Of a stretch of DNA of 64,000 nt, positions 9,196-60,241 are shown one piece after another. The stretch covers positions 3,246-67,245 of the forward strand of contig JBGSRW010000006.1 of assembly GCA_041737355.1 (NCBI GenBank), in the 5' to 3' direction. Origin of the DNA: Patescibacteria group bacterium. GTDB lineage: Bacteria; Patescibacteriota; Patescibacteriia; XYB2-FULL-38-15. The notes beneath the pieces are model-generated. The model had not been told where the DNA came from. It did no database searches and worked only from the letters and a program-made list of their open reading frames with translations. Position 1 is the stretch's first letter; every line of letters starts with the position of its first letter. The position numbers and the translations under genes were made by a program.

Positions 9196-10053
9196 CTATT
9201 TTTTGGAAAGTTTTTTTACCAAACTGTTCAATTCCTCGTCGCCGTAAAAATGGATCACTATCTGCCCGCCCGGGCCTCTTTTTTTAATTTCCACTTTTGT
9301 GCCCAGAACGCTCCGCAGAGTTTCTTCCTTGGCCGAGACAGCCGGGTTGGGAGTTGAGGCTTTGATCCCCCTGGCCCGCTTCACCGCCCCTTCGGCTTCC
9401 CTGGAAGTCATTTCGTTTTTTAAAATCTTGCTGAAATGTTTCAATTGTTCTTTTTCACTGTCGAGCCCAAGCAAACTTCTTGCGTGGCTTTCGGTCAATT
9501 TTCCGCTCCGCAGGGCTTTTTGTATCTCTTCGGGAAGCCCCAGAAGACGGAGCGTATTGGCTACAGCCGGACGGCTCTTCCCGACGCGCCGGGAAACTTC
9601 TTCCTGGGTTAAATTAAATTCGTCCATGAGTTGTTTGAAAGCCCTTGCTTCCTCAACCGGATTCAAATCTTTACGCTGTATATTTTCGATTAAGGCCAAT
9701 TCCAATTTTTCCTGATCGCGTACCGTCCGCAAAATCGCCGGAACGGTTTTCATATTGAGCATTTTGGCCGCCCGGAATCTCCGCTCACCGGCAATCAATT
9801 CGTAATTACCGCCGTCGATCTTCGAAACAACAAGCGGCTGAAGAATACCGTGTTCTTTTATGGAATTAATCAAATCCTCGAGATCCTGGTAATCAAAATT
9901 TTCCCTCGGCTGTTTCGGATTCGGCTTGATGCTCACCACGGGAATTTCCGCCAAGCGAACACCCGCCGGCATTTCAGTTTCGGCGGAAAGAGCTTGGATT
10001 ATTTTTTTAGGAGGAATCAAGGAATTCAATCCCCTGCCCAGACCGTAAGGCAT
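9196..10053 (-). CDS. parB: chromosome partitioning protein ParB/Spo0J
   Basis: ParB box GERRFRAAKMLN and an N-terminal GLGRGL motif. Confidence 0.9.
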   Translation of the reverse strand: MPYGLGRGLNSLIPPKKIIQALSAETEMPAGVRLAEIPVVSIKPNPKQPRENFDYQDLEDLINSIKEHGILQPLVVSKIDGGNYELIAGERRFRAAKMLNMKTVPAILRTVRDQEKLELALIENIQRKDLNPVEEARAFKQLMDEFNLTQEEVSRRVGKSRPAVANTLRLLGLPEEIQKALRSGKLTESHARSLLGLDSEKEQLKHFSKILKNEMTSREAEGAVKRARGIKASTPNPAVSAKEETLRSVLGTKVEIKKRGPGGQIVIHFYGDEELNSLVKKLSKK

Positions 10054-10071
10054 AATGATAAAATAAAATTT

Positions 10072-10836
10072 CTAAATTTTGTAATCAATAATTTCCCGGG
10101 CTAAACGCTCGTAGGCGTGAGCTCCTTTGCTTTTCGCGTCATACTGCAAAATCGAAAGACCGTGCGAAGGCGCTTCGGCCAGACGGATGTTTCTCGGAAT
10201 AACCGAACGAAAAATTTTATTCGGGAAATATTTATAAAGTTCATTCAGAATCGAATCGGAAAGGCCGACACGGCTGTCGTACATTGTAATAGCCGCGCCG
10301 AGAATTTTTAACTCCGGACGAAGGTTGTCCTGGACCAATTTAATTGTTTCCAAAAGCTGGCCCAATCCTTCAAGAGCGTAATACTCCGCCTGAACCGGAA
10401 TGAAAACTTGGTCTGCCGCCACCAGACTGTTGATTGTTAAAAGCCCCAAAGACGGCGGACAATCGATAAGAACATAATCAAAATCATTTCTTACTTCAAG
10501 CAGGGCGTCATAAAGACGATACTCCCGGCGGTCGACTCCGACCAGTTCGACATTGGCTCCGGCCAAAGAAACGGTTGCCGGAGCGACGCGGTAACCTTGA
10601 ATCGCCGTATTTACAATAACATCGCGGAAAGAAGACGTTCCGGCCAGAGTTTCATAAACCCCTTTAGGCAGTGAACGGTGATCAATTCCTAAACCCGACG
10701 TAGCATTGGCCTGGGGATCCATATCAACAAGCATGACGAATTTCCCGAGGCGGGCCAAATAAGCTCCGAGGTTAACGGCAGTCGTTGTTTTACCGACCCC
10801 TCCCTTTTGGTTGACAATAGCAATAATTTGCGCCAT
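10072..10836 (-). CDS. parA: chromosome partitioning ATPase ParA/Soj
   Basis: Deviant Walker A motif IVNQKGGVGKTTTAVNLGA. Confidence 0.9.
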   Translation of the reverse strand: MAQIIAIVNQKGGVGKTTTAVNLGAYLARLGKFVMLVDMDPQANATSGLGIDHRSLPKGVYETLAGTSSFRDVIVNTAIQGYRVAPATVSLAGANVELVGVDRREYRLYDALLEVRNDFDYVLIDCPPSLGLLTINSLVAADQVFIPVQAEYYALEGLGQLLETIKLVQDNLRPELKILGAAITMYDSRVGLSDSILNELYKYFPNKIFRSVIPRNIRLAEAPSHGLSILQYDAKSKGAHAYERLAREIIDYKI

Positions 10837-10865
10837 AATAAATTATCTGCGCTTTTAGTTTTATT

Positions 10866-10894
10866 ATTATACCTCAATATTGCTTTTTTGGCAA
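10866..10894 (-). promoter_or_regulatory. sigma70-like promoter for parA-parB (TTGCCA-N17-TATAAT on the minus strand)
   Basis: Read directly: RC of 10866-10894 is TTGCCA AAAAAGCAATATTGAGG TATAAT. Confidence 0.5.
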
Positions 10895-10921
10895 GATTGT
10901 TCTAAAATAGGAGTAAATTAC

Positions 10922-11008
10922 GCCGATGTGGCGGAACTGGCATACGCGTGCGACTCAAAATCGCATTCCCTTACGGGATTGTGGGTTCAACTCCCACCAT
11001 CGGCACCA
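10922..11008 (+). tRNA. tRNA-Leu (anticodon CAA) with a long variable arm
   Basis: Acceptor GCCGATG/CATCGGC, anticodon loop cTCAAaa, T arm GGTTCAACTCC, encoded ACCA. Confidence 0.8.
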
Positions 11009-11073
11009 TAGCCCTTGCCAAAAAATAAATTTTGGTGTATCTTTAAGGATAAAGCCGCAAAAAATAACATTAT

Positions 11074-11148
11074 AGCGGGGTGGAGAAGTAGCATCTCGCC
11101 TGGCCCATAACCAGGAGACCGCCGGTGCAAATCCGGCCCCCGCAACCA
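11074..11148 (+). tRNA. initiator tRNA-fMet (CAT)
   Basis: Near-identical to the E. coli tRNAfMet 3' half (GGTGCAAATCCGGCCCCCGCAACCA). Has a 1-72 mismatch and a CAT anticodon in CCCATAA. Confidence 0.75.
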
Positions 11149-11178
11149 AAATTTATAGGATTATCATAAAATGCCCAG

Positions 11179-11254
11179 GGCTGGGTAGCTCAGTTGGTAG
11201 AGCGTGGGACTCATAAGCCCGAGGTCGTGGGTTCAATCCCCACCCCAGCCACCA
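11179..11254 (+). tRNA. elongator-type tRNA with a CAT anticodon (Met or lysidine-Ile)
   Basis: GGCTGGGTAGCTCAGTTGGTAGAGC...CTCATAA...GGTTCAATCCCCACCCCAGCCACCA; perfect acceptor stem. Confidence 0.8.
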
Positions 11255-11265
11255 AAAGAAAAAAT

Positions 11266-11727
11266 ATGCTTCTTTCAATACATGCCGCCGCAGGAGCCCT
11301 GATCGGCCAACAAACCAATAATCCCATCCTTGCCTTTATTTTGGGCTTTGCTTCTCATTTCGCCTTAGACGCTGTCCCCCACGGCGACCAGGACTGGATT
11401 GAGGATTATAAAGGAGACGATAAATCCAGAGCCAAAAGAATAATCTTTCTTGTCGGTCTGGATGCCGTTATATTGCTCGGTCTCCTGGTTTCCCAATTTT
11501 TTTACAGATCCCTGACACCAACCCTGAATATTGCCTCCGGAATACTCGGCGGAATACTTCCCGATTTTCTTGTAGGGTGCCACGAATTATCGGACAAACT
11601 TTTCAAAAATTTCTATCAATTGCATTTTAAAATGCACGATCTGCTTAACATAAAACAGCCGTCGACAGTTCAGGGAATTGTTTTTCAGGCCGTAGTTTTG
11701 GGAATACTGCTTATCTTTGCATTTTAG
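11266..11727 (+). CDS. small hypothetical integral membrane protein
   Basis: The ORF-track start at 11194 lies inside the tRNA. The first ATG after the tRNA is at 11266; hydrophobic segments. Confidence 0.5.
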   Translation: MLLSIHAAAGALIGQQTNNPILAFILGFASHFALDAVPHGDQDWIEDYKGDDKSRAKRIIFLVGLDAVILLGLLVSQFFYRSLTPTLNIASGILGGILPDFLVGCHELSDKLFKNFYQLHFKMHDLLNIKQPSTVQGIVFQAVVLGILLIFAF

Positions 11728-11736
11728 ATCGGTGCG

Positions 11737-11768
11737 TAATAACAAAAAATCCGGATAATTTCCGGAAT
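11737..11768. terminator. bidirectional terminator (near-perfect palindrome aaaaatccggataatttccggaatttttt)
   Basis: Hairpin with T-runs on both strands between the convergent genes. Confidence 0.65.
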
Positions 11769-11787
11769 TTTTTATTATACAATAAAT

Positions 11788-12996
11788 TTATTTTACTGCC
11801 CGTTTGTAAACCTCCAATGTTTCCCGGGCGCACTTAGCCCAGCTAAACTCCTTCGCCTTTAACATTCCTTTCTCCCCGAGTTCCAGCCCAACGCTACGCT
11901 CCGACAAAACTTTTTTCATAGCCATTTCAATTGTTTTAATATTTATCGGATCGACGAGAATTGCTCCATCCCCCGCCAACTCCGGCAAGGAAGACGTATC
12001 GGAAGTAATTGTGGGAACTCCGAGCGACATAGCCTCAAGGACCGGCAAACCGAATCCTTCGTAGAGGGAGGGGAAAACAAAACACGAGGCATAACTGATA
12101 AGGGAAAATTTTTCCTGGCCGGGTATGTATCCTATATATTTAATCTTATTCTTTCCCCCCAAAATTTTGTTGCACTTTTCTATTTCTAAAAAAATTTTTT
12201 TGTATTTCCAGCCTTTCGCCCCAGCCAAAACAAGCTGATATTTTTCTCCAATCGCCTTGTTATTAGCGGCAAGACCGCAAAAAGCCCTAACCAGGGCGGC
12301 GATATTTTTTCTTGGCTCAACGGTTCCCAAAAATAAAATGTAATCTTCTTTCAACCCATATTTACTTTTAATATTTTTTGGACAAATTTTCCCTTCCGAT
12401 CCGCAGACGTCGTCATCTTTTGACGGCAGATTTTTGAATTCCACCCCTTCGTAAACCACGTCTACTTTGTCCGGCTTAATTTTAAAAATTTCCGCAATAT
12501 CTTTCTTGGTATTTTTTGAGACAGCGATAATCCTGGACGCCTTTTTCAAACTTTTTGGCACCAATATTTTTTTAGAAAATTCCTGCCCCGCTAAAAATTT
12601 TGAGGGGAACCATTCGGGATGTTTATAAATTGCCAAATCGTGTACGGTCACAACCGACTTTCCCTTGTAAGCCAGGGGAAGTGTGTAGGCCGGGGAATGG
12701 AAAATATCTAGTTTCTCCTTGTCCAGGGCGGCGGCGACCAGAATATGGGAAAAAGCAATCGGCAAATAATGTTTATAGCGGTGAAAGGGGAAAAATTTCG
12801 TCTCCGCGTTCGGGGCGACGGAGATAATTTCCCGAGCCGCTTCCCGGGATAATAAACTGTCAAAAAATAAAATATACCTATTTTTTTTATCCAGTTCGAG
12901 AAGATTCTTCACTAGATAATAGGTATAATGCCCGATTCCGGCGCCCTCTCCGTAGCCCGGATTTAAAATTGTACGGCAATCTATGCCAATCCTCAT
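11788..12996 (-). CDS. glycosyltransferase family 4 (GT-B fold)
   Basis: C-terminal EGFGLPVLEAMSLGVPTITSD motif. The likely start is MRIGIDCR (the ORF track extends to 13023). Confidence 0.8.
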   Translation of the reverse strand: MRIGIDCRTILNPGYGEGAGIGHYTYYLVKNLLELDKKNRYILFFDSLLSREAAREIISVAPNAETKFFPFHRYKHYLPIAFSHILVAAALDKEKLDIFHSPAYTLPLAYKGKSVVTVHDLAIYKHPEWFPSKFLAGQEFSKKILVPKSLKKASRIIAVSKNTKKDIAEIFKIKPDKVDVVYEGVEFKNLPSKDDDVCGSEGKICPKNIKSKYGLKEDYILFLGTVEPRKNIAALVRAFCGLAANNKAIGEKYQLVLAGAKGWKYKKIFLEIEKCNKILGGKNKIKYIGYIPGQEKFSLISYASCFVFPSLYEGFGLPVLEAMSLGVPTITSDTSSLPELAGDGAILVDPINIKTIEMAMKKVLSERSVGLELGEKGMLKAKEFSWAKCARETLEVYKRAVK

Positions 12997-25879: not shown

Positions 25880-26074
25880 CTAATGTACTGCCTTCTTCTT
25901 ACCTTGCCGCTCAGCCCGGGCCCTGCGGATGGTGTCAATTGCCACCCAGCCCAGAAAACAGAGCGGAACGACGGTAGCGACCGCAACACCAGGCGTCTCG
26001 GAGAGCGCCAGACCGATTGTGGCGGCGACTCCGCCAAGAAAGAACAAGCTGATCAGAATGGCCAAGACCTTCAT
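25880..26074 (-). CDS. small 2-TM membrane protein with a basic C-terminal tail (GC-rich island)
   Basis: 64 aa, two hydrophobic helices, and an AAGAGAGGG SD. Confidence 0.5.
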   Translation of the reverse strand: MKVLAILISLFFLGGVAATIGLALSETPGVAVATVVPLCFLGWVAIDTIRRARAERQGKKKAVH

Positions 26075-26085
26075 TCTGCCCTCTC

Positions 26086-26385
26086 TTACTCCGCAGCTTC
26101 CGCGCGGTCATTTTCCGCCTTGATCGCTGCCAGTTCTTGTTTAAATTCATCGAGCCAACGCTTGGCCTTGAAGCTCGCCTTCACGAGCAAAATCAGCCAC
26201 GCACCAACAAAAGCGATTGGAAGGGTGATGACCAAAAATAACCACCAGCCCATTCCCCCGACGATGAAATCCCAACCGGCGATCCCAACGCACGCCCAGA
26301 TAAGCGCGGCCAGAATAAGCGCGAGCCACGGCGGGAAAAGCATGCCAATGTTCAGCTCGAGATCCTCTTTCTCGTTATCCATCAT
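26086..26385 (-). CDS. small 2-TM membrane protein with an amphipathic charged C-terminus (GC-rich island)
   Basis: Start chosen at ATGATGG behind GGAGGGG (the ORF track extends to 26451). Confidence 0.5.
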   Translation of the reverse strand: MMDNEKEDLELNIGMLFPPWLALILAALIWACVGIAGWDFIVGGMGWWLFLVITLPIAFVGAWLILLVKASFKAKRWLDEFKQELAAIKAENDRAEAAE

Positions 26386-26436
26386 CCCCTCCTTCTGTCT
26401 AAACCTTACCAAAAAATTACAAAAAGTCAACGTCTC

Positions 26437-26465
26437 TTGACGAAAAGGCATAAAAGTAATAATCT
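26437..26465 (+). promoter_or_regulatory. sigma70-like promoter TTGACG-N17-TAATCT for the 399-aa gene, overlapping a short inverted repeat
   Basis: Read directly from the sequence. Inverted repeat: GTCAACGTCTCTTGAC. Confidence 0.5.
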
Positions 26466-26534
26466 AAAAAATACTGTATCTGAAGATAGCTACTCGGGAT
26501 TTGGCAGGTATGGGGGCAAAAAGGAGGGAGTTCT

Positions 26535-27734
26535 TTGAAAAAGCAGATCGTTACGGCTTATGGTAAAACTTCTCTTGATGTAAGGCAGCTTCCCGGGGCG
26601 AACATCTTCGTCTCGCTGGAAAAAGCCATTTTCCCGACGGAAAAGAAAAAGCCCGGAGAAAAACAGCAAAGGGCGGAAATCCCGGCGGGAGCCATTCTCC
26701 TGCCCCATTGGAGCGGTTCCGGTTTCAACGCCCAGCGAGGTTACGTTGTCTACGCAAACGGCCTGTACGAGGCCCTGCGGGCGACAACGCACATCTTCTT
26801 CGGCTACGGAACTCGCGGCAACAAAGGAGAACTCCAGACGCTCGAAACGATGTCGAGACAACTAATCGACATCGTTTCCGTTCTGACTGCTGGCAAGGAA
26901 GCCGGGAGCAACCGGCTAACGGCGGTCCAGACCGAACTTGCGGTTATGGCCGAAGAAATGGCCGCGGTCCTGAACCAGACAAAACGCGAGGCCAGGGACA
27001 AAATCGACGCCTCTAAGGCGCTCGAAGTTTCCCATCCTTCCGGAAAGATGGTTCAAAATCTTCCGGCCAACGCGGTACGTCTTGCGGCCGCCCAACGGCG
27101 CATCGAACGGCGCCAAGACGAGGTGCGGAGAATCGCCGCCCGGCTCGTTTCTTGGGAACAGGTTCTGGCCTCAGAAATCGGCCGGACGTGGGATGCCCTG
27201 AATTGGTTTCGCAAGATGATCGACTCCGAAACGAAGCGCCTCTCGGGCCGATGGACGGACAGGGAGAGGGATGTTTTCCTCAACCGCGCCGGCTGGGCCA
27301 AGGCGCATCTTCTCCCGAGCATCGATGCCGAACCTTTCGTCAAAACCGCGCGCCTCATCCGGCGCGATCTTGGCCAGGCCATGTCTGCCGCTGGCGAGCA
27401 GGAGAAGGATAAGGTGGCCGTGGCGCTGAACCGCATCCTCGCCTCGCTCCGCTTCAAGGACGCTCAGCGAGCCTTTGAAGAAAAAATCCTTCTGCCTTTT
27501 TCCGTCCGACAGGAACTCGGTATTTTGACGCAAAACGACATGAGGCATTTTCGGGGCTGCACCGAAAACTTCCGGGAACGCCTGACCGTTTTGTCGGACC
27601 AGGGTTTCGCGAGTCCGCGCAAAGAGGAAATCATCATCCGCCTGAAACTCGCCGTGATCGAAATTGACCGGCTTGGCGTTGACGGTGCCGAGATCGTAAA
27701 AGACGCGCTGAAACGCGCTTCTCATCTGCTTTAG
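26535..27734 (+). CDS. hypothetical 399-aa GC-rich orphan protein
   Basis: TTG start 6 nt after AAGGAGGGAG; about 58% GC; terminator downstream. No motif recognised. Confidence 0.6.
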   Translation: MKKQIVTAYGKTSLDVRQLPGANIFVSLEKAIFPTEKKKPGEKQQRAEIPAGAILLPHWSGSGFNAQRGYVVYANGLYEALRATTHIFFGYGTRGNKGELQTLETMSRQLIDIVSVLTAGKEAGSNRLTAVQTELAVMAEEMAAVLNQTKREARDKIDASKALEVSHPSGKMVQNLPANAVRLAAAQRRIERRQDEVRRIAARLVSWEQVLASEIGRTWDALNWFRKMIDSETKRLSGRWTDRERDVFLNRAGWAKAHLLPSIDAEPFVKTARLIRRDLGQAMSAAGEQEKDKVAVALNRILASLRFKDAQRAFEEKILLPFSVRQELGILTQNDMRHFRGCTENFRERLTVLSDQGFASPRKEEIIIRLKLAVIEIDRLGVDGAEIVKDALKRASHLL

Positions 27735-27744
27735 CCAAAAATAC

Positions 27745-27830
27745 GCAGCACCCTAAAAAGTGCTGTTTTTTTATAAAAAAAGACCCAACTATGCTTGGTT
27801 GGGTCGAGAAACGTTAACACCTTACCCGCT
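27745..27830. terminator. pair of convergent terminators (cagcac...gtgctg-T7 on the + strand; gacccaacc...ggttgggtc-T7 on the minus strand)
   Basis: Two hairpins, each with a T-run in its own orientation. Confidence 0.7.
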
Positions 27831-27834
27831 CTTT

Positions 27835-28827
27835 CTAGAGCGGTGTCCTCACTCCTCCGAAAGGATCGTCTTCCCAGAGGAGATAATACAGCAGAGCTGT
27901 CCTCATCCACATGCCATTCCGTTCCTGACGCCAGATTTTGATGCGAGGGTCACGGTCGCAGGCCGGCTCAAGCTCTCCCCGCCTCGGCAGAGGATGCATG
28001 ACAATCGAGTGCGGCCTGAGAATCTTAAGATGTCGCTCCTGAAAAAAGAAGGGGGTAGCCCCTTTCTCTTTGTCAAAATCATCCTGGACGCGAGTCATAT
28101 AGACCGCGTCAGATACCGCCACGGCTGCCTCAAGATCTTCCGTTTCCTCAAACAGGATATTGTGCTTGCCGAGGAAATCCTTGATGTCTCCCTCCATACG
28201 ATAGGCTGGGGGAGAAACAAAGATAAGACGAACACCGGGGTAGTGCTTCATGAAGTAAGCGAGAGACCGGACTGTCCGGCCACGCTTCAGGTCCCCGGCC
28301 ATGGCAATAGTCTTGCCTTCAATCCCGCCCAACTCACGAAACTCACGATGCAATGTGTAAATGTCAAGCAGAGCTTGTGTCGGGTGCTGATCCTGGCCTG
28401 AACCGCCATTCACAATATGAGCCGCATGCCATGATTGGCGCACCCTCTCCCGGTCGAAGTACTCAGCTGCTTCCTTGGCAAGACCAGCATGAGGCGAACG
28501 CATAATGATGACGTCCGCATAAGACGCAAAAGTCGCCAGAGAATCAAGAGGCGTCTCGCCCTTAACTTCCGACGAAGTATTCGCGTCACGAATCTCAACA
28601 CAGTCCATCCCCAAATTCTGACAGGCAGACATAAACGAAACAAATGTCCGCGTCGAAACTTGGGTGAAGTACAGCGCTGCCCGCCTGTTTGGGAAAAGCT
28701 TCTTCAGTCGCAAAGCGCCGTCAGTTGTCTGAAATGCCTCCCTGATCTTCGTGGTCAGATTGCAAAGGTAGTCGAGTATTTCGCGGTCAAATTGCTGAGA
28801 TTCAAGAACATGGTAGAGACGCTTCAT
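27835..28827 (-). CDS. pyrB: aspartate carbamoyltransferase catalytic-chain-like transcarbamylase
   Basis: STRTFVSF (carbamoyl-phosphate loop, variant of STRTR), HPTQ, GDLKRGRTVRSL, TRVQ and HPLPR motifs. Start at MKRLYH behind GGAGGA. Confidence 0.7.
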   Translation of the reverse strand: MKRLYHVLESQQFDREILDYLCNLTTKIREAFQTTDGALRLKKLFPNRRAALYFTQVSTRTFVSFMSACQNLGMDCVEIRDANTSSEVKGETPLDSLATFASYADVIIMRSPHAGLAKEAAEYFDRERVRQSWHAAHIVNGGSGQDQHPTQALLDIYTLHREFRELGGIEGKTIAMAGDLKRGRTVRSLAYFMKHYPGVRLIFVSPPAYRMEGDIKDFLGKHNILFEETEDLEAAVAVSDAVYMTRVQDDFDKEKGATPFFFQERHLKILRPHSIVMHPLPRRGELEPACDRDPRIKIWRQERNGMWMRTALLYYLLWEDDPFGGVRTPL

Positions 28828-28867
28828 CGCCCGTCCTCCTTTCCTCCCCTTGCTCGGGTGCAAAAAA

Positions 28868-28900
28868 ACGGCGGAGGATTCCTCCACCGCCGCTTCGTGT
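28868..28900 (-). terminator. terminator after recO at the right edge of the island
   Basis: Minus-strand hairpin cggcggtggagg/cctccgccg followed by ttttttt. Confidence 0.55.
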
Positions 28901-35628: not shown

Positions 35629-35814
35629 TTACCAGCTGGATTTTGTAACTCCGGGGATTTCTCCTCGGTTTGCCAATTCCCTAAAACAAATCCGGCAAAG
35701 CGCAAATTTACGCATATATCCCCTTTTCCTTCCGCAACGCCAACAACGCCGCACGACGCGGGATTTAAATTTCGGTTTTTTAAGCGACTTGGAAATTTGA
35801 GCTTCAGTAGCCAT
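35629..35814 (-). CDS. rpsZ: 30S ribosomal protein S14 type Z (zinc-binding)
   Basis: 61 aa, [23 protein letters not shown]. Confidence 0.92.
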
Positions 35815-54613: not shown

Positions 54614-56077
54614 TCATTTTTTCCCCTGTCGCCAGACGAACCATGCGATTATTAAATATGTCACAACGACGACGATCCAATGTATCTGGCCGAGATTGAA
54701 AGCGGCAAAAGGAATTTCCGCCAAAATCTCCGCCGCCTTTATTATATAACTTAGGGAAAACCATGCCAACCAAGCCAGAACCTGGCCCAACCCGGTATAA
54801 ATCAGCCCGCCCAGCACGGCAATAAAACCGAGCGCCATTGTCAGGGGAATTACCGGCAAAATCAAAAGATTAGCTATTGGCGCGATAAAAGAGATTCTGC
54901 CAAAATTGTATAAAATCAGAGGCAAGGTCATGACGATTGCTGATAGAGTTGTGGTAAGCGATTCTTTTATACCAAAAAACGACGGTGCCTTGGCTAAATA
55001 TTTTTCCAAAATCGGCGAAAGAAAAACGAGGCCAACGGTGGCGGCAAAAGACAATTGAAATCCCACGTCAAATGCCAAAATTTTCGGATTTAAAAATAGC
55101 ATGGCCGCGGCGGTGAGCATTAGCGCATTTGTTATTTTACTTACCCGCCCGACTTGGGAGGCAAGAAGAACCAGGCAGCCCATTATGGCGGCCCGTACTA
55201 CCGAAGCGGAAGCGCCGGTTAAAATAACGAAAAAAATTATCCCGGAAAGAGCAACCCAGAAAGATTTTTTTCTGGCGAGGCCGAGCCCTTTCGCAAGCTT
55301 CATCAAGAGAGCTGCCAAAATTGTGATGTTGTATCCGGAAATGGCGATGATATGCGTCGTGCCGGTGATATTAAATTTTTCCATCAAATCCTGCGGGATG
55401 CCGCGCCGCGCACCGTAAAGTAAGCCGCCAAGAAACGCCGCCTGCGGTTCCGGCAAAATCCGGTTAACCGTAAAAACTAATTTTTCTTTAACCAATAGAA
55501 TTCCGATCACGATCCAATTACCCTCCCCGCCGCCCAGCAACTTAATTTCCGGCCAATAACAAAGTGAGTAAATATTTTCCTTGGCCAGATATTTGTCGTA
55601 AGCGAATTCTTCAATCGGTTCGGGTTTTTTAAGCTCGCATTTTATTTCGAGTTTGTCACCGTATTTATAATCGGGATAGAGTTTGGCGTTCACTAAAACT
55701 TTTCCGCTAATATTTTTCCGCCCGCCGCCGGTTACCAGCCCAGAACTTTCCACTATCAATTTCACGCCGCTATCTCTCGTATCCGGTTCTGCGGCTACAA
55801 CCCCGACAAAAGTTTGCTCCCACCCATTGTAGAAGCTGATTTGATTTTCGTTTTGCGGAACGATACTGGCCTCATAACGTAAAATCCCAAAAAATAAAAA
55901 AACTCCTCCCAGTCCGGCAACAATAAAAATTTTCTTAGGCCAGCCGAAAAACAAAAAACCGCATCCGGCTAAAAATACTCCGAACGCGGCCCAAAGCGGC
56001 AGTGGCAAATATGAAGCTATTCCCACGCCTAAGATAAAAAATAAACAGGAATAGAAAAATATTTTGGACTTTGTCAT
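54614..56077 (-). CDS. comEC: ComEC/Rec2 competence channel domain protein (DUF4131 plus competence domain)
   Basis: Multi-TM protein with a ComEC-like topology. It is separated from the MBL ORF by a single in-frame TAA. Confidence 0.75.
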   Translation of the reverse strand: MTKSKIFFYSCLFFILGVGIASYLPLPLWAAFGVFLAGCGFLFFGWPKKIFIVAGLGGVFLFFGILRYEASIVPQNENQISFYNGWEQTFVGVVAAEPDTRDSGVKLIVESSGLVTGGGRKNISGKVLVNAKLYPDYKYGDKLEIKCELKKPEPIEEFAYDKYLAKENIYSLCYWPEIKLLGGGEGNWIVIGILLVKEKLVFTVNRILPEPQAAFLGGLLYGARRGIPQDLMEKFNITGTTHIIAISGYNITILAALLMKLAKGLGLARKKSFWVALSGIIFFVILTGASASVVRAAIMGCLVLLASQVGRVSKITNALMLTAAAMLFLNPKILAFDVGFQLSFAATVGLVFLSPILEKYLAKAPSFFGIKESLTTTLSAIVMTLPLILYNFGRISFIAPIANLLILPVIPLTMALGFIAVLGGLIYTGLGQVLAWLAWFSLSYIIKAAEILAEIPFAAFNLGQIHWIVVVVTYLIIAWFVWRQGKK

Positions 56078-58488
56078 TAAACCACAATATTGACGAGCTT
56101 ACCTTTAACAAAAATAATTTTTTTGATTTCCTTGCCCTCAATCCACTTTTTAACCTTCTCGCTCCCGATCGCAAATTTTTTCGCATCATCCTCGCCGATA
56201 TCCGCCCTTGCCTTTACCGTATCACGTACTTTTCCGTTTATTTGAATAACTAAATCTATTTCTTCTTCTACTACCAACTTGGAATCATGCTCCGGCCATT
56301 TTTCAAGATGAATACTTTTTTTCCCACCAGCTTTTTCCCAAAGCTCTTCAACCAAATGCGGGGCAAAAGGCGCTAATATTCTCAAAAATAATTTCCAAAC
56401 ATCCGGAGAAATTTTTTCTTCACCGCTCATAGCGTTCATTAAAATCATCATCTGGGAAACAGCCGTATTGAATTTCATTGCTTCGATATCTTCTCCGACT
56501 TTCTTGACCGTTTGGTGCAATATTTTTTCAATTTCTCTGTTTGCGTTTTTCCCGCTTACCTTTTCCTGCAGCCGCCAAACTCTCTCCAAAAATCTGTAAA
56601 CTCCGACCACTCCCTTTTCATCCCAGGGAATGGCCTGATCAAACGGCCCCATGAACATTTCGTAAATCCGCAAAGTATCGGCGCCGAAACGGGTTACTAC
56701 GTCATCGGGATTGACGACATTTCCGCGCGATTTTGACATTTTTTCTCCGCCCTCGCCCAAAATCAAACCGTGCGAAGTTCTTTTTTTGTACGGTTCATCG
56801 CCGCACTCTTTGGGAATAACGCCGATATCATATAAAAATTTATACCAAAAACGCGAATACAAAAGATGAAGAGTGGTATGCTCCATTCCCCCATTGTACC
56901 AATCAACCGGCATCCAATATTTTAAATTCTTGCCGTTGGCAAATTCTTTTTTATTTTTCGGATCGGTGTAGCGCATGAAATACCAGGACGATCCGGCCCA
57001 ATTTGGCATGGTGTCCGTCTCACGCCGCGCCGTGCCATTACACTTCGGGCATTTTGTCTTGACCCATTTTTCCATTGCCGCAAGCGGCGACTCGCCTGTC
57101 TCGGTCGGCTCATATTTTTTAACTTTCGGCAACTCAACCGGCAAGTCTTTTTCCGGCACCGGCACCCAGCCGCATTTTTCACAATAGATAAGCGGAATCG
57201 GCTCGCCCCAATATCTTTGCCTAGAAAAAACCCAGTCGCGCAATTTATAATTCACGGCTTTTTTGCCAATCTTTTTTTCCAGAAGCCACGCTGTCATTTT
57301 TTCAATCGCTTCGCTTGGCTTCAGACCGTTTAAAAATTCTGAATTGACCATTATCCCCTTATCAATTTCGGTAAAAGCTCCCTTACTAATGTCACCACCA
57401 CTGATCACTTCTCGAATTAGCAAATCAAATTTTTTAGCGAAAGCAAAATCCCGTTCGTCGTGGGCCGGGACAGCCATAATCGCGCCAGTGCCATAACCGG
57501 TCAAAACATAATCGGCCACCCAAATGGGAATCTCCTCATTATTCACCGGATTAATTGCCTTGATACCCCCCAACTCCACGCCAGTTTTTTCTTTTTGTAA
57601 TTCCGTCCGTTCCAAATCAGACTTTCTTTTTGCTTTGGCAATATATTTTTCCACTTCGACCCAATTAGAAATTTTTGATTTTAATTTTTCCACCATCTCG
57701 TGTTCCGGCGCCAAAACCATGTAAGTAGCGCCAAACAAAGTATCCGGTCTTGTTGTAAACACCTTAATCTTTAATTCTGAATTCTTAATTCCAAATTCCA
57801 CCTCCGTGCCTTCCGATTTTCCAATCCAATTTACCTGCTGATCCTTTATCCGCGGGGCGTAATCAACTTTTTCCAAACCCTCGAGCAGCCGCTCGGCGTA
57901 TTTGGTAATTTTTATCATCCACTGCTCTTTCGTCTTTTTTTCCACTATGCCACCACAGCGCTCGCAAACGCCGTTCACCACTTCTTCATTCGCCAGACCG
58001 ATTTTGCATTTTGTACACCAGTTGATAGCGATTTTATCTTTGTAGGCCAGGCCGTGTTTGAAAAATTGTAGAAACATCCATTGCGTCCATTTGTAATATT
58101 CGGGATCGGTTGTATTTATCTCCCGCGACCAATCGAAAGAAAGGCCAAGCGATTTCAACTGCCTAGTAAAATTTTTAATATTTTTGGCAGTGGCAATTGC
58201 CGGCTGAATCCCGGTTTTTATGGCGTAATTTTCCGCGGGTAAACCAAAAGCGTCCCAACCGATTGGGTACAAAACATTTTTCCCCTGCATCCGATGTTTT
58301 CGGGCAACGATGTCCAGAGCCGTATAACTTCGCGGGTGGCCGACGTGCAGCCCTTCGCCGGACGGATAGGGGAACTCAATCAGGCAATAAAACTTCTCCT
58401 TTTTGGAATTTTCTTTAACTTCGTAAATTTTCCCTTTTTCCCATTTTGCCTGCCACTTCTTCTCAATTTTCTTGAAATTATAATCCAT
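56077..58488 (-). CDS. leuS: leucyl-tRNA synthetase
   Basis: HIGH (HVGHPRSY) and KMSKS motifs, plus the CP1 editing domain. Confidence 0.95.
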   Translation of the reverse strand: MDYNFKKIEKKWQAKWEKGKIYEVKENSKKEKFYCLIEFPYPSGEGLHVGHPRSYTALDIVARKHRMQGKNVLYPIGWDAFGLPAENYAIKTGIQPAIATAKNIKNFTRQLKSLGLSFDWSREINTTDPEYYKWTQWMFLQFFKHGLAYKDKIAINWCTKCKIGLANEEVVNGVCERCGGIVEKKTKEQWMIKITKYAERLLEGLEKVDYAPRIKDQQVNWIGKSEGTEVEFGIKNSELKIKVFTTRPDTLFGATYMVLAPEHEMVEKLKSKISNWVEVEKYIAKAKRKSDLERTELQKEKTGVELGGIKAINPVNNEEIPIWVADYVLTGYGTGAIMAVPAHDERDFAFAKKFDLLIREVISGGDISKGAFTEIDKGIMVNSEFLNGLKPSEAIEKMTAWLLEKKIGKKAVNYKLRDWVFSRQRYWGEPIPLIYCEKCGWVPVPEKDLPVELPKVKKYEPTETGESPLAAMEKWVKTKCPKCNGTARRETDTMPNWAGSSWYFMRYTDPKNKKEFANGKNLKYWMPVDWYNGGMEHTTLHLLYSRFWYKFLYDIGVIPKECGDEPYKKRTSHGLILGEGGEKMSKSRGNVVNPDDVVTRFGADTLRIYEMFMGPFDQAIPWDEKGVVGVYRFLERVWRLQEKVSGKNANREIEKILHQTVKKVGEDIEAMKFNTAVSQMMILMNAMSGEEKISPDVWKLFLRILAPFAPHLVEELWEKAGGKKSIHLEKWPEHDSKLVVEEEIDLVIQINGKVRDTVKARADIGEDDAKKFAIGSEKVKKWIEGKEIKKIIFVKGKLVNIVV

Positions 58489-58578
58489 ATTATTAATATC
58501 TTAACATAAACGTCCTAATAAAAAAAGCTCCGCGGTTGGCCTTTAAACCATGCACACGGAGCATGTCTCTCTCCAAAA

Positions 58579-59571
58579 CTAACCCGAGAGCCGGACCGAC
58601 GGAACGAGCCGGCGGTACCTTGCCCGAAGCTTACCGTTCAGTGCGGCATTCCGGGGAAGGCCTCGGACCAAGAGTTCGATTCTCCCGCTTACAACGTGGC
58701 TTCTTACCTGGAGCACTTCGTTGGAGCCCTCTCTTTCGTTGTAGGCAGTCCGGAGACAGACCGGTTCGTCCTGATCGAGGATGTCGCAGGAGATCTCCTT
58801 CATGACTACCCAGGCAAGCAGATACTCCTCAAGCGAGAGCACCTCCCAACCAGCGGGCGCCTGCCGCTCGAATTCGCTGAAGTTCTTACCATGCCGCGGC
58901 GCGCTTCCGCCGATCTCCGCCCAGAACCAGTAGCCTTCGCTTGTGGGAGAGAAGGCAATCCAGCTCCTGTCTCCCTCCCGCAGGGTCGAATGGCCTCCGA
59001 GGCCGATGGCCTCCATCAGTCGGCCGTAGGAAACCTTGACCTCTGGCGGCCGGTAGATCAGCTGTTTGTTTTCCCCGCAGCCGGTCTCGAATTCCTCGGC
59101 CGTAATCGCCGCCCTGGGTACCTCGATACCGTTGAAGTCGTAGAGGCGGAAGAGATTCTCCGCGGTCTGCCGCCAGTTTTCCACGGGGTCATCAGTTGCC
59201 GCAGAGGGCGGAACCGACGGACATATCCGCCTGGCCACCGTAGCCGTTTTGGGACGAACATCTTCCGACTCGCCCACGAACTGTGCCGCCGCAAGCTGGA
59301 TATCGAGCTCCGCTACACGCGTGCGGAGAAGCTCGAGTTCCTCGCGCTCTTCCGGCTTGAGCTCCGGACAGACGAGCCTCGTCGATTCGGAATCGGAGGT
59401 GTTGCCCTCCAGAGCCGCTTCGATTGCCAACTTGAAACCGCGAAGCGCGATCTCCGCCGTCATTTCCTTACGTTCAACCAAGTCGCAAAGACGCTGCCAC
59501 CTGCCGGCCATCCGCTCCATAAGAGCGAGATCGGCAAGAAGCTTGTCGATTCTCTTCGGGTCTCTTTCCAT
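58579..59571 (-). CDS. hypothetical 330-aa GC-rich orphan protein
   Basis: GGAGGAGGAAGG SD; a TTGACA promoter at about 59640-59674; about 58% GC. Confidence 0.55.
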   Translation of the reverse strand: MERDPKRIDKLLADLALMERMAGRWQRLCDLVERKEMTAEIALRGFKLAIEAALEGNTSDSESTRLVCPELKPEEREELELLRTRVAELDIQLAAAQFVGESEDVRPKTATVARRICPSVPPSAATDDPVENWRQTAENLFRLYDFNGIEVPRAAITAEEFETGCGENKQLIYRPPEVKVSYGRLMEAIGLGGHSTLREGDRSWIAFSPTSEGYWFWAEIGGSAPRHGKNFSEFERQAPAGWEVLSLEEYLLAWVVMKEISCDILDQDEPVCLRTAYNEREGSNEVLQVRSHVVSGRIELLVRGLPRNAALNGKLRARYRRLVPSVRLSG

Positions 59572-59720
59572 CTGCCTTCCTCCTCCCCCGCTCTCGGAGG
59601 TTTTTATTATATTTGACGATCATCCACAAATTTGGAGATCTCATTATCTAAATACTTTTTTTCAATTTTGTCAACCCTGATAAAATAAAAAGGGCTGGCT
59701 TGATCCAACCCTCCGCCTCC

Positions 59721-60158
59721 TTACTTTCTTTCGATCTGCTTCCGGCCGGAAGCCCTTGCCCAGCTGCCGCTCGAGATCTCCCCGCCGACCGCGTTGCCGG
59801 CCTTTTTCCTCGGCAAAATCTTTTTCCTAATATACCCCAGGCAATGCTCACTCATTTCGCGCTCAAATTCCTGCCGTCGGGCGGGAAAATTTCTCCACTC
59901 GGCAATGACTCTATCGCATGGCCAACAGAGCTTGTCCGTATTGTACATTGCAAGAGTCGCTCCGCAGCATTCGCATCTCCGTCTACCCGGAATAGTTGGA
60001 AGCGACTGAACGGTCTCGGAGATTTTGTCCTCGCCGTCCGTCTCAGTAAGAGACGCTGTTTCGGGCAAATTTTTCTCCGATGAAACGGGCTCGACGGACG
60101 TCTCGACCGTCTTCGGCTTTTTGGAAAACCCTTCTTTGTCTTTTATTTTTCTCGACAT
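59721..60158 (-). CDS. hypothetical GC-rich protein with a CxxC...CxxC zinc ribbon
   Basis: Start at MSRKIK behind GGAGGAG. Motif CECCGATLAMYNTDKLCWPC. Confidence 0.5.
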   Translation of the reverse strand: MSRKIKDKEGFSKKPKTVETSVEPVSSEKNLPETASLTETDGEDKISETVQSLPTIPGRRRCECCGATLAMYNTDKLCWPCDRVIAEWRNFPARRQEFEREMSEHCLGYIRKKILPRKKAGNAVGGEISSGSWARASGRKQIERK

Positions 60159-60212
60159 TTTCTCTCCTCCGTCTAACTTTAATGATTCTGCCCGAAAAGT
60201 CAATTCAACAAA

Positions 60213-60241
60213 AAATCCGCCTCTCCGGCGGATTTTTTAAT
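60213..60241 (-). terminator. terminator after gdhA
   Basis: aaaaatccgcc-tctcc-ggcggatttttt. Confidence 0.7.

Follow-up and report, generated by a model that had tools for sequence, protein, structure and literature searches.

Background

What kind of system is formed by two GC-rich genes, one for a protein of 330 aa and the other for a small zinc-ribbon protein, that lie side by side between gdhA and leuS in a Patescibacteria group bacterium? The locus was singled out in a preliminary description of a 64,000-nt stretch of contig JBGSRW010000006.1 (assembly GCA_041737355.1, positions 3,246 to 67,245; hereafter the window), in which the pair, here called the cassette, was compared to the layout of some regulatory and defence modules. 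The bacteria of the Candidate Phyla Radiation (CPR), to which this genome belongs, are ultra-small obligate episymbionts and the bacterial group richest in diversity-generating retroelements (DGRs). Known variable proteins of DGRs include Mtd of a Bordetella phage, TvpA of Treponema, TaqVP of Thermus and AvpA of Nanoarchaeota. To our knowledge, the means by which CPR bacteria recognise hosts and phages are largely unknown. It has been reported that DGRs can act on remote targets and that CPR bacteria are enriched in DGRs, the targets of which typically have no recognisable domain there, and new variants of the C-type lectin (CLec) are expected among them (PMC8144416).

In this paper, we have analysed the cassette together with its relatives in other genomes, and we find that its larger protein is built on a scaffold also used by a family of DGR targets, here in a form that is DGR-less, fused to a coiled-coil-like region and paired with a zinc-ribbon protein. 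The 330-aa protein is probably a fast-evolving binding protein, and not a housekeeping or known defence protein.

Results

The 330-aa protein belongs to a family that includes targets of diversity-generating retroelements

Only 6 close homologues of the 330-aa protein were found among 5.8 billion proteins, and scans of Pfam, NCBIfam, PHROGs and PADLOC gave no usable match to it. A profile was built from its last 203 residues, which are conserved even in a homologue of 238 aa, and was searched against 1.84 billion cluster representatives. This search recovered 117 clusters, 94 of them at E<=1e-10 and 39 at E<=1e-30, mostly of proteins of 190-260 aa, with the motifs VPxP, LFYRP, GYWFWAE, LEEY(V/L)(I/L)xW (LEEYVIVW), LD..T..LRT and a C-terminal G-x-R (GGR..EVV). 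The window protein itself keeps the near-invariant columns W88, L120, E122, Y123, D139 and R191 of the family. The earlier statement that it has no recognisable motif is accordingly correct for the curated libraries but not in general, and the protein is not the orphan it was taken for, as its C-terminal domain defines a family of ~117 clusters. The C-terminal domain is modelled by AlphaFold with a pLDDT of 95.9, but Foldseek gave no convincing match to the model (best E 0.26 in PDB and 0.085 in BFVD). Searching PDB sequences with the family profile returned only a spurious Fab match, Pfam, NCBIfam and PHROGs gave nothing when 85 or 13 family members were scanned against them, and two conserved peptide patterns retrieved no member from the viral contigs of IMG/VR.

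A complete DGR was found in L009 (loci of other contigs are designated by L and a number), where it occupies positions 9797-12537 of a 39%-GC genome and has a 259-aa family member as its target, encoded by a GC-rich gene with a G+C content at third codon positions (GC3) of 0.73. Its variable region (VR) and template repeat (TR) form a pair of 124 nt, in which 13 of the 14 mismatches fall at TR adenines, and the variable codons occupy alternating positions of the last ~40 residues, which are the final three beta-strands in the model. The family members at L013 (10172-10570), L023 (2-400) and L024 (2-400) are near-identical (~99%) save for a cluster of ~20 sites within the final ~110 nt, and at several of these sites each of the three sequences has a different base; no TR or reverse transcriptase (RT) gene was found in the fetched DNA around these three. 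DGR parts were also sought in 20 other family loci, and only L009 has them. A cluster look-up for natural variants of the VR gave only a singleton. The C-terminal domain family thus includes bona fide DGR targets in other CPR bacteria.

Relatives of the 330-aa protein usually occur alone, without a zinc-ribbon neighbour, and many of their genes are GC-rich relative to the genome that carries them (e.g. L009, L010, L011 and L021). The one at L010 (9836-10582), a solitary 248-aa member with a GC3 of 0.86, is inserted among consecutive glycosyltransferase genes, on the strand opposite to theirs, in a Parcubacteria metagenome-assembled genome (MAG) of 53% GC, as another compositionally foreign singleton. 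Positional orthology beside an aminoacyl-tRNA synthetase was rejected for the wider family: to judge by its motifs, the synthetase downstream in L024 appears to be an IleS/ValS-type paralogue and not LeuS, and no neighbour is shared throughout.

The window copy is not diversified by a retroelement

Neither an RT nor an Avd gene was detected in the window by tblastn with the L009 proteins at E<=1, and no part of the 330-aa gene is repeated within these 64 kb as a TR would be. Compared with its counterpart in L006, the gene is 91.7% identical at the nucleotide level, with 82 differences that are evenly spread and mostly transitions; 55 of the 78 changed codons are synonymous and 23 non-synonymous, giving a dN/dS of 0.11. 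Among 14 members of the clade that has the gene pair, the stretch equivalent to the VR is conserved to about the same degree (40%) as the rest of the domain (44-47%), and the most variable parts are the N-terminal helices and the linker, with mean identities of 27% and 17%, respectively. The window copy is therefore not diversified by a DGR, and the stretch is under purifying selection.

The cassette is a genuine pair, fixed between gdhA and leuS in one clade

The order gdhA, zinc-ribbon gene, 330-aa gene, leuS and the minus-strand orientation of both cassette genes, as given in the preliminary description, were borne out by the open reading frames (ORFs), and so was the high GC content: 0.61 over the 330-aa gene and 0.49-0.52 over the zinc-ribbon gene, against 0.40-0.47 in the flanks. 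GC3 amounts to 0.72 and 0.62 for the two genes, respectively, and lies at 0.59-0.76 in every allele of both, compared with ~0.5 in neighbouring genes.

The pair does co-occur elsewhere. Nine more distinct alleles, from independent assemblies of different samples, have it at the same place between gdhA and leuS, and another contig, assembled separately, matches the window at 100% identity along 11,645 nt that span both cassette junctions. In every looked-up locus with DNA downstream, the zinc-ribbon gene is followed by a gene for a protein of 308-354 aa related to the 330-aa one, and gdhA and leuS flank the pair wherever the contig reaches far enough (pair loci L001-L004, L006, L027, L028, L029/L030, L031, L032 and L034/L035). 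At L005 alone, the zinc-ribbon gene is immediately preceded, where gdhA would be expected and the contig ends, by a GC-rich (64%) fragment of an IS110-family transposase (PF02371; 25-684). The cassette is genuine and not a chimera, and it is a lineage-specific pair, fixed at this position in one CPR (Patescibacteria-type) clade. The large gene of L028 (10495-11556) contains an in-frame stop, so that it is called as 221 + 107 aa, and is intact in the near-identical L027; it may be a pseudogene or reflect a sequencing error.

Alleles at the locus are highly divergent and appear shuffled

In all genome pairs, the N-terminal 130 aa of LeuS are 87-95% identical and the C-terminal 70 aa of GdhA 87-97%, while the 330-aa protein is 26-93% and the zinc-ribbon protein 42-83% identical between genomes, without relation to the distance of the flanks. 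Between the window and L006, synonymous divergence (dS) is 0.23-0.30 in the cassette, versus 0.69 in gdhA and 1.47 in leuS. Moreover, the two genes group differently: the zinc-ribbon protein of L001 groups with that of the window (72%) and its large protein does not (34%), and L005 falls together with L029 and L032 by its zinc-ribbon protein, but with L034 and the window by its large protein. The histories of the zinc-ribbon and 330-aa alleles are thus incongruent. Because the flanks are 87-97% identical, the pair only 26-93%, and the allele histories do not agree, the locus looks like a recombination-shuffled, hypervariable one, in which old divergent alleles would have been moved by recombination; a breakpoint between the two genes is possible.

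Each gene is predicted to form its own transcription unit

The transcription and translation signals and the boundaries of the cassette are listed in Table 1 with the other features. Those given in the preliminary description were all recovered, namely a GGAGGAG-type Shine-Dalgarno (SD) sequence for each gene, a TTGACA hexamer with a -10-like sequence upstream of the 330-aa gene, a hairpin terminator after the zinc-ribbon gene and the gdhA terminator that bounds the cassette. The hairpin after the zinc-ribbon gene recurs in 9 loci, across which 4 of its 9 pairs show compensatory changes. The element upstream of the 330-aa gene was not reported by the consensus promoter scan, its -10 element being imperfect, and its arrangement TTGACA-N18-TAnATa is kept in most of seven aligned relatives. 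A second terminator follows the 330-aa gene (-24.7 kcal/mol, z = -3.77). The intergenic DNA of the cassette is AT-rich and conserved. As the genes are set apart by an intergenic terminator and a conserved promoter-like element, and the 330-aa gene is followed by a terminator of its own, the two are predicted to be separate, monocistronic transcription units.

Table 1. Features of the cassette, of the window around it and of related loci. Positions are those of the window unless a locus is named.
Feature	Position	Strand	Basis or remark
gdhA intrinsic terminator, perfect 12-bp palindromic hairpin; upstream cassette boundary	60210..60238	-	terminator scan
Zinc-ribbon gene promoter-like site, TTGACT-16-TAAAGT, 9/12 matches	60176..60203	-	consensus match only
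Zinc-ribbon gene SD, GGAGGAG	60170-60164	-	read from sequence
Zinc-ribbon protein gene, 145 aa	59721..60158	-	ATG at 60158; ORF and homologue starts
CxxC-x12-CxxC zinc knuckle, C62-C81; weak similarity to uS14 type Z	59916..59975	-	profile comparison
Zinc-ribbon gene intrinsic terminator, hairpin (59714-59689) and T run	59681..59714	-	scan
330-aa gene conserved promoter-like element, TTGACA-N18-TAGATAAT; TTGACA 59674-59669, 18-nt spacer, TAGATA(AT) 59650-59643	59643..59674	-	sequence and alignment of 7 loci
330-aa gene SD, GGAGGAGG	59586-59579	-	read from sequence
330-aa protein gene	58579..59571	-	ORF; purifying selection, dN/dS 0.11 against L006
N-terminal helical (coiled-coil-like) region and linker with CPSVPPSA motif, residues 1-127	59191..59571	-	allele alignment
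C-terminal 203-aa domain, motifs GYWFWAE, LEEY, LRT, G-x-R	58582..59190	-	profile search; AF2 pLDDT 95.9
Terminator after 330-aa gene, GCUCCGUG...CGCGGAGC + U7; stem 58562-58527	58520..58562	-	folding
leuS promoter-like site, TTAAGA-16-TATAAT, 10/12 matches; downstream cassette boundary	58477..58504	-	scan
DGR of L009, target gene	L009 9797-10576		
DGR of L009, VR	L009 10448-10571		
DGR of L009, TR	L009 10941-11064		
DGR of L009, bAvd	L009 11098-11511	-	E 2.8e-12
DGR of L009, RT	L009 11434-12537		RVT_1, E 5.4e-22
leuS with insertion	L001 11577-15173		
leuS with insertion	L005 2557-5610		
leuS with insertion	L027 11790-15065		
leuS with insertion	L029 2374-5946		
Second island, ORF of 399 aa	26535-27734	+	no Pfam match
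Second island, ORF of 121 aa	26086-26451	-	membrane-like
Second island, aspartate/ornithine carbamoyltransferase-family gene	27835-28887	-	

The partner carries a zinc knuckle resembling that of uS14

The zinc-ribbon protein, described earlier as 146 aa long with a CxxC-x15-CxxC ribbon, is 145 aa long when read from its ATG; the two CxxC pairs are there (C62, C65, C78 and C81), but they are spaced by 12 residues and not 15. A longer reading of 160 aa from a TTG at 60203 is a mechanical ORF, as all homologues start at ATG. The protein consists of a disordered K/E/S-rich N-terminus, which was rightly noted before and is absent from short forms of 114-116 aa, the knuckle, a fast-evolving variable linker and a conserved basic tail, GGEISSGSWARAxGRKQIERK, in which SSGSWARAxGRKQIERK is almost invariant. 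Among 5.8 billion proteins it has 4 close homologues, and a profile search brought their number to 19; it has no usable match in the scans of Pfam, NCBIfam, PHROGs and PADLOC, so that neither cassette protein falls into a housekeeping family in these libraries. In the linker (59776-59875, minus strand), substitutions are clustered, with 74% identity to L006 against 90-97% around it; these changes are not adenine-specific, and the whole gene has a dN/dS of 0.56.

The best PDB sequence match of the protein is the ribosomal protein uS14 type Z (E 0.03; pairwise hhalign probability 84%), with which it has the identical CxxC-x12-CxxC spacing and the motif C-x-x-C-G...Y....LC..C.R..A in common. However, only 38 residues align, and the cassette protein differs from uS14 type Z in its 145-aa length, its long disordered N-terminus, an insert of ~40 residues and its tail. 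It has no match to Pfam Ribosomal_S14, nor does it significantly match an S14 model along the full ~61 aa, which include GxIPGVxKASW at the C-terminus. The window contains a canonical gene for uS14 type Z at 35632-35814 (minus strand), and the cassette knuckle is the second-best S14 match there.

Relatives in Deltaproteobacteria point to exchange between phyla

Full-length homologues of the 330-aa protein are encoded in two 73%-GC groundwater MAGs of Deltaproteobacteria, JACRCX01 and JACRCZ01 (loci L007, 9506-10609, and L008, ~9500-10609). They are 45-48% identical over the C-terminal domain, have no zinc-ribbon neighbour and are compositionally native (GC3 0.91 in L007). In a neighbour-joining tree with 200 bootstraps, they nest inside the CPR pair clade with 96-100% bootstrap, and transfer between CPR and Deltaproteobacteria is therefore well supported. 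As to its direction, composition favours a transfer from high-GC bacteria to CPR, while the tree topology favours either the reverse, with Deltaproteobacteria as recipients, or an exchange that happened repeatedly. The high GC3 may instead have arisen by GC-biased gene conversion, if the locus is a hot spot of recombination. No transposase, integrase or other recombinase gene accompanies the cassette in the window, and no flanking direct or inverted repeat or att site longer than expected by chance was found around it.

Other features of the region

A second GC-rich island lies at ~25900-28900 of the window (GC 0.51-0.57 versus ~0.44; Table 1), which suggests repeated input of high-GC DNA into the genome. 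The window LeuS (56077-58488, minus strand) has 803 aa, and close relatives that are 86-92% identical to it elsewhere carry an insertion of 214-395 aa after a conserved PLIYCE.C motif, with Ser_hydrolase/abhydrolase domains and, in L029, also a NUDIX domain.

Discussion

We put forward, with moderate confidence, that the cassette encodes a fixed-specificity relative of DGR variable proteins, serving in ligand recognition, and a nucleic-acid-binding partner, and that this clade-specific pair evolves by allele exchange. The 330-aa protein would join a variable, helical and probably oligomerising N-terminal region to a C-terminal domain of 200 aa, which serves as the scaffold of DGR variable proteins in other CPR bacteria, where adenine mutagenesis rewrites its last ~40 residues, in three beta-strands. 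The window copy, being DGR-less, would be of fixed specificity and may bind or recognise its ligand through the same C-terminal face; ligand binding and oligomerisation are what we infer from this relationship. The zinc-ribbon protein, with its uS14-like knuckle and basic tail, may bind nucleic acid, probably RNA, and act with or regulate the 330-aa protein; the functional coupling of the two is likewise putative. Diversity at the locus would come from very divergent alleles and not from retro-mutagenesis, the alleles presumably being exchanged when homologous recombination takes place in the conserved genes on either side and in the AT-rich promoter and terminator between the two genes, which are conserved as well.

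Several observations weigh against this reading. The C-type-lectin fold is not confirmed, a human C-type lectin being matched by Foldseek only at a TM of 0.32/0.42; the subclade of the 330-aa protein has diverged in the C-terminal strands, and the protein shows no signal peptide or membrane segment that would suggest surface display. The model does not account for a GC3 that is elevated in all alleles of both genes, tight co-evolution of the two is hard to square with their incongruent histories, and the similarity to uS14, being limited to 38 columns, could be that of a generic zinc knuckle. Finally, only two of the examined lineages, L009 and the L013 group, bear DGR signatures, and the family may therefore have roles independent of DGRs. 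In a stronger version, which we regard as doubtful, the cassette would be a DGR-independent system in which ancient specificity alleles, built on a DGR-type scaffold of possibly new fold, are swapped through the gdhA and leuS flanks and the AT-rich promoter and terminator, with exchange reaching a 73%-GC Deltaproteobacterium as a possible episymbiont host; the pair would then be a determinant of host or partner recognition, and its persistently high GC3 a footprint of recombination, by GC-biased gene conversion, and not of foreign origin.

The other explanations that we have considered are less well supported. As members of the family are DGR targets, and DGRs can act remotely and abound in CPR bacteria (PMC8144416), the 330-aa gene might be under active remote targeting by a DGR that lies in the genome beyond the 64 kb of the window. 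This is very unlikely, given that the differences from L006 are not clustered in the VR-equivalent region and are mostly transitions and synonymous, that the strands of this region are conserved across alleles, and that there is no TR, RT or Avd within the 64 kb. A two-gene anti-phage defence or toxin-antitoxin-like module, with the zinc-ribbon protein as sensor or regulator of an effector, would fit the foreign composition of the locus and its hypervariability amid conserved flanks, both frequent in defence loci, and the lack of housekeeping matches. It is nevertheless unlikely, and the module layout suggested in the preliminary description finds no support: PADLOC gave no match for either protein at E<=1, there is no association with defence genes and no nuclease, ATPase or other effector domain, and each allele has members of these two families at the site, and not one of several systems that replace each other. 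The separate transcription units, the incongruent allele histories and the usually solitary occurrence of the relatives of the 330-aa protein also speak against it.

The composition of the cassette raises two further possibilities. It might be the cargo or remnant of a mobile element, e.g. an IS110-associated one, from a high-GC donor that was inserted upstream of leuS, as the GC3 difference from host genes, the transposase fragment at L005 and the Deltaproteobacteria homologues would suggest. We consider this quite unlikely, since recombinase genes and flanking repeats are lacking in the window, the position is fixed in all alleles, and the conserved, AT-rich promoter and terminator look native; moreover, relatives with an empty gdhA-leuS junction and a target-site duplication are absent across the clade, the family has no member in the IMG/VR contigs, and the nesting of the Deltaproteobacteria inside the CPR clade makes the donor direction not simply one from high-GC bacteria to CPR. 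An assembly chimera, i.e. a GC-rich piece of another organism joined into the CPR contig, would explain the abrupt GC step at the cassette; its probability is practically negligible, because both junctions recur in assemblies made independently from different samples, the 11.6-kb identical stretch of a separate contig crosses them both, and AT-rich regulatory DNA inside the cassette is conserved. Lastly, the uS14-like knuckle and the constant position upstream of leuS might indicate a translation-linked module, in which a diverged uS14 paralogue and its partner are functionally tied to leuS. This is highly improbable, as the genome keeps a normal uS14 type Z gene, the similarity spans only 38 residues, terminators and the leuS promoter set the units apart, and the pair evolves far faster than leuS.

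Read as a fixed-specificity relative of DGR variable proteins with its partner, the locus connects DGR targeting with a domain family that has no annotation but can be modelled confidently, and offers a sister lineage in which the same scaffold would be diversified by allele exchange beside a conserved zinc-ribbon protein. This provides a natural comparison between retro-mutagenesis and recombination as diversifiers of one protein family. It also yields a new candidate scaffold for binding, compact enough to be of use in structural work or display, and possibly a marker by which gene flow between CPR and high-GC bacteria can be traced. Should the protein bind no ligand, the finding would be that of a clade-specific pair with its function unassigned. 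The population genetics and the GC signature of the locus are unusual; they do not overturn the current understanding.

Recombination-shuffled hypervariable loci between housekeeping flanks are known for surface antigens, receptors and specificity subunits under diversifying selection. The cassette resembles them in that its flanks are ~90% identical in all pairs and the insert 26-93%, that its dS is below that of the flanks in one pair, and that the allele groupings of the two genes are incongruent; it differs from them in having no surface-localisation signal and in the elevated GC3 of all its alleles, which is not normal for such loci. With the solved DGR variable proteins, the domain of the 330-aa protein has no sequence similarity and no confirmed C-type-lectin fold in common, and the window copy differs from them further in that it is not hypervariable and is not accompanied, within 64 kb, by a TR, RT or Avd of its own; its pairing with a zinc-ribbon gene also sets it apart from the other family members, which have no such partner. 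It shares with the targets of the CPR 'clade 2' DGRs that these are likewise unannotated, without a transmembrane or recognisable domain (Roux et al. 2021, PMC8144416). As in DGR variable proteins, the VR of its relatives lies at the extreme C-terminus and affects alternating residues of beta-strands, and the 330-aa protein, like them, fuses a variable N-terminal module to a conserved C-terminal scaffold.

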